From Escherichia coli (GTDB lineage Bacteria > Pseudomonadota > Gammaproteobacteria > Enterobacterales > Enterobacteriaceae): a DNA stretch of 64,000 bases. The position numbers and the translations under genes are program-made. Location of the stretch: assembly GCF_041886205.1 (NCBI RefSeq), contig NZ_CP169029.1. The stretch is one strand, 5' to 3'. Positions 5,213-27,344 of the stretch are shown here, piece after piece. Position 1 is the stretch's first letter, and each line of letters opens with the position of its first letter. The notes beneath the pieces were generated by a model that worked only from the letters and a program-made list of their open reading frames with translations, was not told where the DNA came from and searched no databases.

Positions 5213-5237
5213 GATAACGATAATTAATTTCATTATC
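5213..5237. promoter_or_regulatory. Fur box(es) in the entS/fepD divergent promoter
   Basis: gataacgataattaatttcattatc, overlapping Fur-like hexamer repeats between divergent entS and fepD. Confidence 0.75.
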
Positions 5238-7243: not shown

Positions 7244-8055
7244 CCGAATCAGTAGCCCGTTTGCGCGGCGAACAGTTAACCCTCGGATATGGCAAATATA
7301 CCGTTGCGGAGAATCTGACTGTAGAAATACCTGATGGTCACTTCACAGCAATTATCGGGCCAAATGGCTGCGGTAAATCCACTTTACTGCGTACTTTAAG
7401 CCGCCTGATGACGCCTGCTCACGGGCATGTCTGGCTGGATGGCGAGCACATTCAACATTACGCCAGTAAAGAGGTCGCTCGCCGGATTGGTCTGTTGGCG
7501 CAAAATGCTACCACGCCGGGCGATATCACCGTGCAGGAACTGGTGGCGCGTGGGCGTTATCCGCATCAACCGCTGTTTACCCGCTGGCGCAAAGAGGATG
7601 AAGAAGCGGTAACGAAAGCGATGCAGGCCACGGGAATAACTCATCTGGCAGATCAAAGCGTGGATACCCTTTCCGGTGGGCAACGCCAGCGAGCGTGGAT
7701 CGCGATGGTGCTGGCCCAGGAAACGGCAATTATGCTGCTCGACGAACCCACGACCTGGCTGGATATCAGTCATCAGATTGATCTACTGGAACTGTTAAGC
7801 GAACTGAACCGCGAGAAAGGCTATACCCTGGCGGCTGTGTTGCACGATCTTAATCAGGCCTGTCGTTACGCCAGCCATTTGATTGCGTTGCGGGAAGGGA
7901 AAATTGTTGCTCAGGGAGCGCCGAAGGAAATTGTCACTGCCGAACTGATCGAGCGCATTTATGGTCTGCGCTGCATGATTATTGACGATCCGGTTGCCGG
8001 AACGCCGCTCGTGGTGCCGCTCGGACGAACGGCACCTTCAACCGCAAAGATTTAA
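7240..8055 (+). CDS. fepC: ferric enterobactin ABC ATPase FepC
   Basis: MTESVARLRGEQLTLGYGKY with Walker A GPNGCGKST; ATG at 7240 overlaps the fepG stop; the longer track ORF (7099) is an in-frame read-through of fepG. Confidence 0.92.
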   Translation: MTESVARLRGEQLTLGYGKYTVAENLTVEIPDGHFTAIIGPNGCGKSTLLRTLSRLMTPAHGHVWLDGEHIQHYASKEVARRIGLLAQNATTPGDITVQELVARGRYPHQPLFTRWRKEDEEAVTKAMQATGITHLADQSVDTLSGGQRQRAWIAMVLAQETAIMLLDEPTTWLDISHQIDLLELLSELNREKGYTLAAVLHDLNQACRYASHLIALREGKIVAQGAPKEIVTAELIERIYGLRCMIIDDPVAGTPLVVPLGRTAPSTAKI

Positions 8056-9185
8056 ACTAAGTGGTCTGCCATCATGGCATCCTGTTTTCTGGATGCCATC
8101 GCATGGCGCAACAGCACGCCACCACAAGCCACCATCCCGCCGATCAACGCGGAAAGGATTACAATAATCGCCTTACCCGGACCGTCTTTTTTCACTGGCA
8201 ATGACGGGCTTAACTGATATTTAAACGGCGTAAAGTTCACATCGTTGACATTTGCTTTTGTTAATTGCTCGACAAGATACTGCCGATTACGTAATTCACC
8301 ATTCAGTTCCGCAACGTCAGTGACCGCTTTTTCAATTTCCAGTTTGCGTTCAATACCGTCTGCGCCGAGAGAAATAGAGAATTCGGGGTCATCTTTAACG
8401 GCCTGACCATTGCTATAAACGGGCTTTTTAATTCCTGCCGCGTTGGCAATGTCGAGTGAATAATTGAGGCGCTGAATGTTTGCATCAAGTTGGTTTTTCG
8501 TTTTAATGCGATCCTGGGCCAGTTTTTCTTTTTCAAACTGGGTTTTGATTTCCAGTTTATTACGGACGTTTTCTAGCGACTCTTTCACCACCAACGCAGA
8601 GATATAATCGATATACCCGCTCAAAACGGTCTGCGCCTCTTCACTGGTTGGCGCGGTAAAACTTAGCGTCCAGGAGGTATACAGTGACGGTTCATCTTTT
8701 TTCTTACTGGCATTGTCATCAACCGCTTTCATTTTTTCGCTCAATGCGACAATTGCGCGATGCAAATCCAGTTCGTCGATTTTCGCCTCTTTTAATTGGT
8801 CCATCACATAAGGTGATGAACGCAGGTACTCTTCCAGCAAGCTAACAGACTGAAACTTCTTGATAAAAAGGTTAAATGCACCGCCACGGTCGATATTAAC
8901 ATCGAGATCAAGAACGCGGAGTTTGGTAAAGGTTTTCTCCAGGTCCTGCCACTGAATGGCTTCGGCGGGAGTAATGACGGCTGAGCTGGTCCATTTTTGC
9001 GGCAGGATGAAAGAGATCAGTAAACCTGCGCAGGCAAATGCAAAAACGACCGCCATGATCGTTTTTTTTGCCCGCCATAAAACGTCGATTAGATTAAGTA
9101 AATCAATTTCATTACTACTGGGCGACGCCAGAGGATACTCGGGAAAATGAGCGTCACTTCCCTGTTTAATATTCAGTGATGACAT
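8052..9185 (-). CDS. fepE: Wzz-family polysaccharide co-polymerase FepE (O-antigen very-long-chain length regulator)
   Basis: ORF containing MSSLNIKQGSDAHFP...; 377 aa from the ATG at 9185; two transmembrane ends with a coiled-coil periplasmic region. Confidence 0.88.
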   Translation of the reverse strand: MSSLNIKQGSDAHFPEYPLASPSSNEIDLLNLIDVLWRAKKTIMAVVFAFACAGLLISFILPQKWTSSAVITPAEAIQWQDLEKTFTKLRVLDLDVNIDRGGAFNLFIKKFQSVSLLEEYLRSSPYVMDQLKEAKIDELDLHRAIVALSEKMKAVDDNASKKKDEPSLYTSWTLSFTAPTSEEAQTVLSGYIDYISALVVKESLENVRNKLEIKTQFEKEKLAQDRIKTKNQLDANIQRLNYSLDIANAAGIKKPVYSNGQAVKDDPEFSISLGADGIERKLEIEKAVTDVAELNGELRNRQYLVEQLTKANVNDVNFTPFKYQLSPSLPVKKDGPGKAIIVILSALIGGMVACGGVLLRHAMASRKQDAMMADHLV

Positions 9186-9350
9186 GGGTATAACCTGAAA
9201 ATGAGTCCAATAGGGGGAAATCTCCACGGCGCTCACTTTACCAGTTGGTGAGAATTATCCGAAGCTGAAGTTTGTAAATTCCTTCCACTGAATGCAACAT
9301 TCACTCTATTTAAGAGAAATGACCAACAAACATATAAATTAAATAAATGA

Positions 9351-9385
9351 TTAACCCATAATTATTTCCTGTAATTATGGGTTAA
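9351..9385 (-). terminator. perfect 14 bp inverted repeat with 7 nt loop immediately downstream of entF; candidate intrinsic terminator/attenuator
   Basis: ttaacccataatta-tttcctg-taattatgggttaa; on the minus strand it is followed by UCAUUUAUUU. Confidence 0.4.
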
Positions 9386-9399
9386 TAGATAATATTAAT

Positions 9400-12300
9400 T
9401 TACCTGTTTAGCGTTGCGCGAATAATCGGCCCAATTTTTTCAAACGCCCCTGGAGAGATAATATCCACATGCGCACAATCTGTACGATAAATATCCAGCC
9501 CGGCTATCCACGGCGACCAGGCGCGTTCGGGACTCATACCTTCCTGAAGCGTGCGTTCAGCAACAAACAGCGTCGCTTTACCGTCAAACGGTACGCTATG
9601 AGCAGTCGTCAGCAGGCGCACAGCATCAGCGTAGTTGCCTTCAATGGTGGTAAACAACTCCGTTGAAGTACTTCCCTGCTGTGCCGCCAGGAAGGCCTCG
9701 CGTTCGCGGTTAATCTCCGCCAGCACTTCCGGGTCCAGGCCATTAGCCTCTTTTTCCTGCCAGTTTTGCGTTTCTGGCGGCCAGGTATCCAGCAAGCCAA
9801 GAAATGCCACCTGTTCGCCACGGGCACGCAGTCGCGCCGCAATACCCTGCGCCAGCGTACCGCCCAGCGAATAACCCAGCAGGTAATAAGGGCCGTGCGG
9901 TTGATGCTCAAGTAACGTTGCCAGATGCGCTTCGCAGACTTCATCCAGATTTGCCGCCGTCTGCATGGGGCCATTGGGGCGCGGTGACTGAATGCCGATA
10001 ATCGACCATTGTGGATCGAGATAACGCGAGAGCACGCTGAACTGCCAGGCAAAACCGGACGCAGGATGGAAACAAAACAGCGTCGGGCCATTACCTTCAC
10101 GCAACGGCAGAATGGTTTCGAATCCCATGCGCCGGGAGCTGTCTTCTTCAGCATCAATAATCGTTGCCAGTTTGGCGACGGTTGATGCGACCATCACCTG
10201 CCCCGGCGTCACCTGACGAGCAAACTGTCGACTTAACTGCGCTGCCAGTTTCATTGCCAGTAGCGAATGACCACCAAGCGCGAAGAAATCAGCATCGGCA
10301 TCCTGCACGTCACAACCCAGTAACGACGAGAATGCCGCGGCGATAATCGTTTCACTGCCCGCTTTCGGCGCACGCCTTGGCGCTTGTGCCTTCAGTTCAG
10401 GCAACGGCAAGGCTTTGCGATCCAGCTTGCCGTTGGCGCTAAGAGGTAACTGTGGAAGTTGCAGCAGAACCACTGGCACCATATGTGGTGGCAATGTTTC
10501 ACGAAGCTGCGCCTGCAATGCGCTGGTATCCAACGGCAGGCCCGATTGCGACACCAGATAGCCCACCAATTGACGCGCATCACCACCGGTGGCAGCCGCC
10601 TGGTTAATCACACAGGCGTGGGTAACGGCTTGTTCGACATCCGGCAGCGCCTGCATCACGCGATCGATTTCGCCCAGTTCAATACGCTGCCCGCGAATTT
10701 TTAGCTGATCGTCACTGCGCCCGAGGTACTCCACCGCGCCGTTATCCAGCCAGCGGGCAACGTCTCCGGTACGGTACATCCGTTCACCAGGAGCAAAAGG
10801 ATCGGCAATAAAGCGGCTGGCGGTCAGATCGGGTCGTCCAAGATACCCCTGCGCCAGTTGAATACCGGTGAGATAGAGATCTCCCGCCACACCCGGCGGC
10901 ACCGGATGCATCATCGCATCAAGAATACGCAGGCCCGTGTTCCACACCGGATAACCAATCGGCACACTGCTGCCGCGCACCTGTGCCAGTTCCTCGCCAA
11001 AAGCCGGATACCAGCTGACATCTACCGCCGCTTCCGTCGGGCCATATAGATTATGCAACGGCGCGCCAGTTAACTGTTGCCATTCGCGGCATAAATCAGC
11101 CGGTAAGGCCTCACCACTACAGAAAACCTGTTTCAACGTCGCGCAACTCTGGCGAGCGGTTTGCGGCGTCAGCGAGGCAACAAATGCCGCCAGCATCGAC
11201 GGCACAAAGTGCGTGGTCGTTACGCCATATTCGGCAAAGAATTGCTGCATAGCGAGCGGGTCGCGGTGCGCTTCCGGTTCAGCCATCACCAGTTTTGCCC
11301 CTGCGATAAACGGCCAGAAAAACTCCCACACCGAGACATCAAAACTGCACGGCGTTTTTTGGGCAACGACATCTTCGCCTGTAAGCGGGTAGTGATTTTG
11401 CATCCATAACAGGCGGTTAACGATAGCCGTCTGCCCGACCATTACCCCTTTCGGCCTGCCGGTGGAGCCAGAGGTAAAGATGATATAAGCCGTGTGGTGC
11501 GGTTGTGAAAGTTGCAGCGGCGCACTGCCCTGGGGGGTAAGCGGGGCGTTATAGCAAAGGCTTGTTAAATTGGGAACATCGCTAAAGCGCGGCAGTTGAT
11601 CGTCGGTGGTAATTAACAGCGACGGACGCGCATCTTCCAGCATCATTTTCAGGCGATCGTCCGGATAGCCGGTATCCAGCGGTAGCCAGGCCGCGCCAGC
11701 TTCAACTATTGCATGGAGTGCCAGGGTCAAAAAGACCGAGCGCGGTAGTGCCACCGCCACGCTGTCCCCTGGTTTAACGCCGCGCTCACGCAGCAGATTC
11801 GCCAGCGCCACCACCTGCTCGCGCATTTCCCGATAGCTGAACAGGTAACGCGCATCTGCCAGCGCCGGAGCATCCGGTGTTTTTGCCGCTTGTTCTGCCA
11901 CCAGCGCGCTCAGCGTGGTTTCTGGAATCTCAACCTGAGTGGCGTTGATCTGCGCCAGCTGCGCATACTCACCTGGCAGCATAATATCGACATCGCCGCA
12001 CAACAGCGCCGGATCCGCGGCGAACTGGGCAATCAGCATTTTCAGGCGTTCAGCATGCTGGATTAACGTTGGCTCATCGTAACGCTGTTTATTGGCGAGG
12101 ATCTCAATACTCAAATCACCGTGTTCATCCGGGAACAGGGCCAGTTCAAGGTCATTAACCGGACCGGTTGCCAGGGTATGGGTTTGCGCCTGAACACCAG
12201 GAATATCCAGTTGGTAATCAAATACCTTAATATTGAGTACCGGACCAAACAGCGGTTCATCACCTGCCGCTCGCCCGCTGTCACGGACAATTTGTTCGGC

Positions 12301-13281
12301 ATCGTAACGTTGATGGCGACGCATTTTTTTCAGTTGAGCCGCCAGTCGGGTTGCCAGTTCCGGCAGCGTTTCTTGCGCCGCAATGTGAATACCCAACGGT
12401 AAAACGTTGAGCACGGGTCCGCTAGCCGTCAGCGCCGCCGAGCCCAGTCGACGCATAAAGATAAATCCGGCGGCATAGTCCATGCGATTGCACAATCGCC
12501 CCAGCCACAAGGCTGCCAGCGCAAGGGCTAAATCGGTACGCTGCACACCTGAAAGTTGCGTAGCCAGCTGGCGGAATTCCCCGTCGGTAAATTCCAGTTT
12601 CAGGCGCAGAATATCTGCCGAAGCGCTGCGCCCCGCTAAAGGTGCCGGAGAAAGTGACGCGGGCGGCGGCAGTTGACGACGCTGTTCTGCCCAGAATGCC
12701 GCATCACGCTGCCAGGCTTCGCTTTCGCGGTATTGCTGGTACTCTTCCACTACATCAGCGAAAGGCGTAAACGGCGAAGCAGGCGTTGGTTCGCCACGCA
12801 GCCATGTGCAGTAAATATTGGCGATCTGGCGAGTAATGGCCGGGAAACTGAAGCCATCGACCAGCAAATGGTGATAACGCTGATACCAGTACCAGCGGTT
12901 ATCCGCAACATGTATCAGCTGATGAAAGACCAGTGGTTTACCGCTATCGACGCGCAAATCTTGTTGCAAATCCGCCAGCATTAATGCCTGCGCAGTACCG
13001 TGCGGATCAATATTGGTTCGCAGGTCGATAATTTCTGGCAGTTCGAATATCAGCGCATCATCGACCCACTGCCAGACTTCGCCGTTATCTTCCGTAAAAC
13101 GCATCCGCAACGTATCTGCTTGCGCTAGTCCGGCAACCACCGCGCGGGCCAGTAATGGCGCATCAACCTCTCCGGTTAACTCAACGTAATGCGCTACGCT
13201 CCAGGCGGAGGGTAAATCCGACAGTTTTTCTGCCATCCAGATGCCGGGCTGTGCGGCGACCAAAGGTAAATGCTGGCTCAT
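9400..13281 (-). CDS. entF: enterobactin synthase NRPS component EntF (C-A-PCP-TE, serine activating)
   Basis: 1293 aa ORF MSQHLPLVAAQPGIWMAEKL with adenylation motifs (SGSTGRPKG), PCP motif (GGHSLLAM) and thioesterase motif GYSLGG. Confidence 0.95.
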   Translation of the reverse strand: MSQHLPLVAAQPGIWMAEKLSDLPSAWSVAHYVELTGEVDAPLLARAVVAGLAQADTLRMRFTEDNGEVWQWVDDALIFELPEIIDLRTNIDPHGTAQALMLADLQQDLRVDSGKPLVFHQLIHVADNRWYWYQRYHHLLVDGFSFPAITRQIANIYCTWLRGEPTPASPFTPFADVVEEYQQYRESEAWQRDAAFWAEQRRQLPPPASLSPAPLAGRSASADILRLKLEFTDGEFRQLATQLSGVQRTDLALALAALWLGRLCNRMDYAAGFIFMRRLGSAALTASGPVLNVLPLGIHIAAQETLPELATRLAAQLKKMRRHQRYDAEQIVRDSGRAAGDEPLFGPVLNIKVFDYQLDIPGVQAQTHTLATGPVNDLELALFPDEHGDLSIEILANKQRYDEPTLIQHAERLKMLIAQFAADPALLCGDVDIMLPGEYAQLAQINATQVEIPETTLSALVAEQAAKTPDAPALADARYLFSYREMREQVVALANLLRERGVKPGDSVAVALPRSVFLTLALHAIVEAGAAWLPLDTGYPDDRLKMMLEDARPSLLITTDDQLPRFSDVPNLTSLCYNAPLTPQGSAPLQLSQPHHTAYIIFTSGSTGRPKGVMVGQTAIVNRLLWMQNHYPLTGEDVVAQKTPCSFDVSVWEFFWPFIAGAKLVMAEPEAHRDPLAMQQFFAEYGVTTTHFVPSMLAAFVASLTPQTARQSCATLKQVFCSGEALPADLCREWQQLTGAPLHNLYGPTEAAVDVSWYPAFGEELAQVRGSSVPIGYPVWNTGLRILDAMMHPVPPGVAGDLYLTGIQLAQGYLGRPDLTASRFIADPFAPGERMYRTGDVARWLDNGAVEYLGRSDDQLKIRGQRIELGEIDRVMQALPDVEQAVTHACVINQAAATGGDARQLVGYLVSQSGLPLDTSALQAQLRETLPPHMVPVVLLQLPQLPLSANGKLDRKALPLPELKAQAPRRAPKAGSETIIAAAFSSLLGCDVQDADADFFALGGHSLLAMKLAAQLSRQFARQVTPGQVMVASTVAKLATIIDAEEDSSRRMGFETILPLREGNGPTLFCFHPASGFAWQFSVLSRYLDPQWSIIGIQSPRPNGPMQTAANLDEVCEAHLATLLEHQPHGPYYLLGYSLGGTLAQGIAARLRARGEQVAFLGLLDTWPPETQNWQEKEANGLDPEVLAEINREREAFLAAQQGSTSTELFTTIEGNYADAVRLLTTAHSVPFDGKATLFVAERTLQEGMSPERAWSPWIAGLDIYRTDCAHVDIISPGAFEKIGPIIRATLNR

Positions 13282-27317: not shown

Positions 27318-27344
27318 CCGCTCTCATCGAATGGATGAGAGCGG
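27318..27344. terminator. bidirectional intrinsic terminator between convergent ybdG and pheP
   Basis: ccgctctcatc-gaatg-gatgagagcgg hairpin flanked by aaaaaaa on one side and cgttttg on the other. Confidence 0.7.

Follow-up and report, generated by a model that had tools for sequence, protein, structure and literature searches.

The window, by which is meant the whole stretch of 64,000 nucleotides of Escherichia coli DNA that was analysed, carries the enterobactin NRPS gene entF on its minus strand at positions 9400..13281, with the stop codon TAA at 9402-9400, as placed by the open reading frame list and by the RefSeq annotation of an identical E. coli stretch. On the same strand, fepE (wzz(fepE)), which encodes the O-antigen very-long chain length regulator, occupies positions 8052..9185. 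The annotation of the identical stretch puts ybdZ and fes upstream of entF and shows fepDGC converging on fepE. It also bears out the gene context given in a preliminary description of this DNA, with entF directly before an inverted repeat and fepE about 165 bp further on. At the far end of fepE, fepC (plus strand, end 8055) and fepE (minus strand, end 8052) are convergent and overlap by 4 nt (8052-8055) with no terminator between them, and either transcript would continue antisense into the opposite gene.

The inverted repeat between entF and fepE has arms of 15 nt each at positions 9350-9364 (ATTAACCCATAATTA) and 9372-9386 (TAATTATGGGTTAAT), which are 100% complementary and enclose a 7-nt loop. 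The preliminary description had a perfect repeat of 14 bp; the repeat is present and is perfect, but the pairing extends by another base at either end. Among perfect inverted repeats with a loop of 3-12 nt, no other in the 64-kb window is as long. When the window was shuffled 60 times under a first-order Markov model, the maximum arm was 13, and 32 of the 60 shuffles contained no arm of 10 or more. The 14-mer arm has no other copy in the window, except for one chance match with 2 mismatches. Folding of the 101 nt around the repeat is far above that of shuffled sequences on both strands (z = -5.2 and -5.6).

The next longest perfect inverted repeat in the window has 11-bp arms and is found at positions 27318-27344. 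It reads CCGCTCTCATC-GAATG-GATGAGAGCGG, has A7 before it and a stop codon upstream, and resembles a GC-rich terminator, probably of a minus-strand gene.

On the minus strand, which is the sense strand of both entF and fepE, the hairpin begins 13 nt past the entF stop codon and ends 165 nt ahead of the fepE ATG (9185). The order in the minus-strand RNA is the UAA stop, 13 nt, then AUUAACCCAUAAUUA-CAGGAAA-UAAUUAUGGGUUAAU, followed by CAUUUAUUUAAUUUAU. Thus the 5′ arm AUUAACCCAUAAUUA corresponds to positions 9372..9386, the loop CAGGAAA to 9365..9371 (CAGAAAA, CAAUAAA, CAGUAAA or CUAUAAA in other alleles), the 3′ arm UAAUUAUGGGUUAAU to 9350..9364, and the U-rich tail CAUUUAUUUAAUUUAU to 9334..9349. 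Downstream of the stem the sense strand reads CAUUUAUUUAAUUU / CAUUUAUUUA. The tail has 5 U in its first 8 nt and is interrupted by comparison with that of K-12, where UUUAUUUGUUUG follows a stem that ends in GGGUUU. The hairpin alone has a predicted folding energy of -15.3 kcal/mol, with three G-C pairs in the 15-bp stem, which is below the GC-richness of typical terminators.

A consensus terminator scan reads the repeat as terminator-like (15 pairs, 3 of them G-C, then 5 U in 8). However, the same scan over an 800-nt region gives one match in the real sequence against 0.8 in shuffles, and the call from a single sequence is weak by itself. The case therefore rests on comparative data. It may be added that an outer, imperfect helix, in which positions 9328-9342 pair with 9395-9409 (13 of 15 paired), joins the A-rich stretch at the entF stop to the U-rich tail and lengthens the hairpin in the predicted fold. 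This outer helix is possible in K-12 too but is not evident in the allele of strain S4, described below.

One genome per species was scanned with FepE, which yielded 75 loci. In 22 of these entF is directly upstream of fepE, and these 22 loci come from Escherichia, Salmonella, Citrobacter and Intestinirhabdus. RNAfold shows a strong hairpin followed by a T-run at 13-41 nt past the entF stop codon in 21 of the 22. The stems are 10-18 bp long with energies of -11 to -19 kcal/mol, and the U-tract in most of the other species has 4-7 U in 8 positions. The gap between stop codon and hairpin is 13 nt in Escherichia, as against 21-41 nt in Citrobacter and Salmonella.

A strict scan for a hairpin with a T-tract finds a sense-strand match in 18 of the 22 intergenic regions, a density of 3.9 per kb compared with 0.30 per kb in coding controls. 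On the antisense strand the same scan gives no match at the hairpin in any of the 22 loci. Two of the sense-strand misses are Salmonella loci that fall slightly below the tail threshold, and a third, C. amalonaticus AUH, has an internally asymmetric stem followed by UUUAUAAUAUU. The fourth, Citrobacter sp. MGH106, with an ERIC-like insertion and a decayed stem, is the sole exception to the 21 of 22. In this locus (L021) the ERIC-like element (...CCCCAGTCACTTATCAGGTAAGTGACTGGGG...) lies immediately after entF at 2156-2300, and the usual terminator stem, farther on, is reduced to 8 bp of A and T only, ahead of a long T-run.

The sequences of the arms diverge widely from one species to another: C. 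amalonaticus, for instance, has ATCCCTCGTAAC/GTTACGGGGGAT, and C. werkmanii has AACAACCCCATAATG/TGTTGTGGGGTTGTT. RNAalifold nevertheless folds 26 sense-strand sequences from the four genera into the same helix, with compensatory changes at 8 of the 14 pairs. These pair counts are from the MAFFT/RNAalifold alignment of sense strands; the alignment from the covariance-model search mixes strands and was left out. Over the 26 sequences, 96.1% of cells are paired, compared with 82.5% in shuffles and at most 56% in slid-partner controls, and none of 500 shuffles reaches the observed value.

The pairing is also biased with respect to strand. G·U occupies 35 cells, at 9 pairs, against only 3 cells with A·C, and the 96.1% pairing on the sense RNA drops to 87.2% on the complement. 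In the C. freundii group 13-14 of the 14 positions pair on the sense RNA and 10 on the other strand. When the loci were searched with a covariance model made from the Escherichia alleles, each gave a single site; for the window, the score was 85.5 bits in the sense orientation and 35.3 bits in the antisense one. The excess of G·U and the model scores thus point to a constraint on the entF-sense RNA and not on the symmetry of duplex DNA. It should be noted that in DNA palindromes changes that look compensatory can also arise by template switching or correction during replication. Because the G·U bias is strong and the U-tract is conserved together with the stem, we argue from these alignments that selection on the RNA would be the main cause of the compensatory changes, and that template switching would not be their sole cause.

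The same data bear on the direction of action. The hairpin could be bidirectional, i.e., it could in addition stop plus-strand transcription that comes from fepDGC and runs antisense through fepE toward entF. Such transcripts could reach the site, given the convergence and 4-nt overlap of fepC and fepE, and in the window allele the plus strand folds equally well. However, the plus-strand stem is followed by AGAUAAUAUUAAU, without a U-tract, and both the lower pairing and model scores on that strand and the empty antisense scan of the 22 loci speak against a second direction, which we regard as very unlikely.

Within E. coli, the entF-fepE intergenic region (9186-9399) is unusually polymorphic for the core genome, and across positions 9100-9500 the majority of 5,410 genomes share only 90-95% identity with the window. 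The aligned E. coli alleles retain the hairpin and vary at its base and in its tail. The K-12 type, AAACCCAUAAUUA-CAGAAAA-UAAUUAUGGGUUU followed by UUUAUUUGUUUG, has the form of a textbook terminator. The O157 and B2 types have AUAAACCC...GGGUUUAU followed by CAUUU, and the window type has AUUAACCC...GGGUUAAU, an A-U to U-A swap. A divergent intergenic allele of 246 nt, present in about 516 of 5,426 genomes (e.g., strain S4), looks unrelated to the others. It has a hairpin with two additional compensatory pairs, followed by UUUAUUC, and both the U-tract and the RcsB box of the fepE promoter are kept. One-sided changes in O157, CUVET20 and 31B22 produce G·U pairs on the sense RNA. Across the Escherichia set (15 sequences) 96.9% of cells are paired, with changes on both sides at 4 pairs, one of which is found as C-G, G-C, A-U and U-A; the observed score is reached by 0 of 500 shuffles.

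The exact 37-nt hairpin of the window is present in no more than 482 of the 5,426 E. coli genomes (at most 9%). Of these genomes, 1,492 have the 53-mer of the K-12 type and 546 have the B2 type, and every type is single-copy. The outgroups, namely E. albertii, other Escherichia species and Salmonella, have AAACCC...GGGUUU, which indicates that the perfect 15-bp palindrome is a derived allele. Thus the perfect symmetry, presented in the preliminary description as a trait of the element, belongs to one E. coli allele only. Among the E. coli alleles tested, this one has the weakest tail, with a score of 1.36 (CAUUUAUU, 5 of 8 U) compared with 4.06 for K-12 (UUUAUUUG after GGGUUU). When the stem is taken to end at GGG, the scores are 2.30 for the window and 5.33 for K-12.

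Two strains have a damaged fepE. In strain A30 (locus L003, 356-1445) an IS1A lies between entF and a truncated fepE pseudogene, and in strain HUM3355 fepE is frameshifted. These cases indicate that fepE has been inactivated repeatedly.

A palindrome upstream of a gene may also be read as a DNA operator, on which a dimeric regulator would control fepE (or entF). The dyad is perfect in the window allele, its CCATAAT/ATTATGG core is fairly conserved across genera, and its location upstream of fepE would suit such a role. However, the sequence and length of the arms and the length of the loop vary by species while complementarity is kept, and one position is found in all four Watson-Crick combinations within Escherichia. 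The G·U pairs in the stems of the C. freundii group are mismatches in terms of duplex-DNA symmetry. About 125-160 nt separate the palindrome from the inferred fepE start downstream of it, and the regulator site that is known, an RcsB box, is elsewhere. In addition, the best Fur-box match in the intergenic region is 11/19, equal to the mode of shuffles, and the fepE homologues found outside the entF context lack the palindrome. The operator option of the preliminary description thus finds no support, the half-sites being unconserved and the dyad imperfect as DNA in Citrobacter, and we consider it highly improbable.

The intergenic region has a G+C content of 33% compared with 52% for the window, and this, together with its polymorphism in E. 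coli, the ERIC-like insertion in one Citrobacter and the IS1 insertion in one E. coli strain, could suggest that the palindrome is one copy of a mobile or repeated palindromic element (REP, ERIC or a MITE end), or the scar left by one, or that it marks the boundary of an acquired low-GC fepE segment. Against such an origin, the hairpin has only one copy in the window, and searches of 42 related loci and 5,426 E. coli genomes (median of 1 place per genome) likewise gave single copies; it matches no Rfam family. It is found in the same place with diverged sequence in four genera, and is therefore old and maintained. A mobile or acquired origin has, in our judgement, scarcely any probability.

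In 44 fepE homologues that do not adjoin entF, from Enterobacter, Lelliottia, Buttiauxella, Cedecea and others, no comparable hairpin is present in the 500 nt upstream of the gene. A link of the hairpin to fepE was therefore rejected, and on comparison of these gene orders the hairpin is seen to go with the end of entF. In three Pseudocitrobacter loci (L027, L029 and L079; 952-2091) an opposite-strand open reading frame of 379 aa, glycosyltransferase-like, separates entF from fepE. A terminator-like hairpin lies about 40 nt past the entF stop codon, at approximately position 960 between the convergent genes, in L027 and L079; the strict scan finds none at the corresponding spot in L029.

Promoter elements of fepE are located on the other side of the hairpin. 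In Salmonella Typhimurium the SalCom start site is 43 nt before the fepE ATG (PMC7913699), and an RcsB box, TCGGATAATTCTGA, at -36 to -22 of this start site was demonstrated by DNase I protection and EMSA (PMC7913699). The window has the orthologous box, TCGGATAATTCTCA, at 9249..9262, 77 nt before the fepE ATG, and in 19 of the 22 other-species loci the box is at -73 to -79. A candidate extended -10 of the fepE promoter, TGgTAAAGT at 9235..9243, is proposed from the sequence, the cross-species alignment and the Salmonella work (PMC7913699). By homology with the Salmonella start site we infer that E. coli fepE starts at around 9226-9229. The RcsB box and the candidate -10 are 90-125 nt downstream of the hairpin, which thus separates the end of one unit from the promoter of the following one. 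A sigma-70 promoter scan gave no minus-strand match in the intergenic region; its only match, on the plus strand inside entF, is at the chance rate. The RcsB box is altered in K-12 and 042, where TCGGATAATTATCA breaks the TC(T/C)NA half-site, and the window and most species keep the consensus.

The position of the hairpin upstream of the inferred fepE start also bears on a regulated attenuator or a riboswitch leader. This candidate was rejected; no competing fold appears in the MFE or centroid structure, and there is no Rfam leader match. An Rfam scan of positions 8900-9700 at E up to 10 returned chance-level matches only. The small open reading frames downstream of the hairpin encode only 20-23 aa, overlap the promoter region and do not look conserved.

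Published transcriptomes bear on the relation between the two genes. In ExPEC exposed to serum, fes, ybdZ and entF go up with iron limitation and fepE does not, and there is a separate response of fepE to complement (PMC4145685). In K-12, entF goes up 13.7-fold and fepE is absent from the induced genes (PMC6049941). Both papers follow the databases in labelling the operon fes-ybdZ-entF-fepE (PMC4145685, PMC6049941), a name that implies some read-through. The expression results themselves agree with an uncoupling of fepE from fes-ybdZ-entF.

Taken together, the repeat is best explained as the stem-loop of a Rho-independent (intrinsic) terminator of the minus-strand fes-ybdZ-entF transcript, a reading to which we give a probability of roughly 85%. 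The terminator option in the preliminary description is thereby upheld, by the conserved sense-strand hairpin and U-tract, by the compensatory and G·U changes, and by the fepE promoter elements downstream. RNA polymerase leaving entF would transcribe the 15-bp hairpin (about -15 kcal/mol) and then the U-rich stretch. The hairpin would form in the exit channel while a weak rU:dA hybrid occupies the active site, and the transcript would be released. Afterwards the hairpin may protect the 3′ end of the entF mRNA, and most transcription of fepE would begin at the RcsB-controlled promoter of that gene, about 90-125 nt beyond the hairpin. That transcripts end at this site, and with what efficiency, we infer from sequence features. 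The searchable supplements of published 3′-end and operon-mapping studies contain no mapped 3′ end for entF or fepE, and no published description of an entF terminator was found in the literature.

Termination in the window allele is probably incomplete, because of its interrupted U-tract and the short distance, only 13 nt, between stop codon and hairpin. At the lambda tR2 terminator, a terminating ribosome can repress termination when the distance from stop codon to hairpin is about 13 nt (PMC4824070). A refinement of the terminator reading is therefore possible, albeit doubtful, whereby the terminator is leaky or tunable and only part of the entF transcripts are stopped, the fraction varying with the allele and with translation of the 3′ end of entF, so that fepE would be partly coupled to Fur. 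The strong dependence of U-tract quality on allele in E. coli, with the window allele at the weak end, and the short gap of Escherichia relative to Citrobacter and Salmonella are in keeping with this refinement, as are the ribosome effect on terminators so near a stop codon and the inclusion of fepE in the database operon name. However, fepE is not among the genes induced by iron limitation in the two transcriptomes, neither of whose strains is known to carry the window allele. In addition, no antiterminator pairing was found, and the hairpin dominates the predicted fold.

A more specific form of this refinement, which must be called speculative and is unlikely, is that of a polymorphic valve. 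Here the U-tract alleles, from canonical (K-12) to interrupted (window), together with the 13-nt spacing would set a Fur-dependent read-through into fepE. If this were true, production of very-long O-antigen, and hence resistance to serum and bile, would respond to iron in some lineages only.

The significance of the terminator reading is primarily for annotation, since fes-ybdZ-entF-fepE is treated in the literature and databases as one Fur-regulated operon. The conserved terminator and the separate RcsB-controlled promoter speak for fepE as, in the main, a separate transcription unit, linked to envelope stress and not to iron. The interpretation of transcriptome and regulon data for fepE depends on the operon model, and the main value of the present analysis is in correcting that model. 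If read-through differs by allele, O-antigen chain length in pathogenic E. coli and Salmonella could also be affected.

Comparison with known systems places the hairpin as follows. It shares with the Fur box (GATAATGATAATCATTATC) an AT-rich composition, ATAAT/ATTAT motifs and a location in an iron-regulated gene cluster. However, a Fur box was rejected, since the best match in the intergenic region has the shuffle-mode score noted above, whereas the entS-fepD site in the window reaches 15/19. In that divergent promoter region, used as a positive control, two overlapping 15/19 matches to the Fur-box consensus are found at 5213-5237. Similar to REP and ERIC sequences, the hairpin is an intergenic palindrome past the end of a gene; it differs from them in being single-copy, AT-rich and without a family match.

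The Salmonella fepE promoter is likewise in the entF-fepE intergenic region, and its RcsB box resembles that of the window in sequence (TCGGATAATTCTGA and TCGGATAATTCTCA) and in spacing to the ATG (-79 and -77). However, the box is distinct from the hairpin and lies about 90 nt downstream of it, and the hairpin is not discussed in the Salmonella study (PMC7913699).

The closest likeness is to the canonical intrinsic terminators, such as lambda tR2 and predictions of the TransTermHP type. As in these, a stem-loop followed by a U-rich tract lies soon after a stop codon on the sense strand, compensatory and G·U changes preserve its structure, and its predicted action is in one direction. The differences are a long and unusually AT-rich stem (3 of 15 pairs G-C) and a distance of only 13 nt from the stop codon. 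In the window allele, moreover, two positions that formerly belonged to the U-tract are now paired in the stem (GGGUUAAU in place of GGGUUUUU or GGGUUUAU), which leaves the tail interrupted. Thus, to judge from the comparative sequence data, the hairpin after entF is most likely an ordinary intrinsic terminator, conserved in shape across related gut bacteria.
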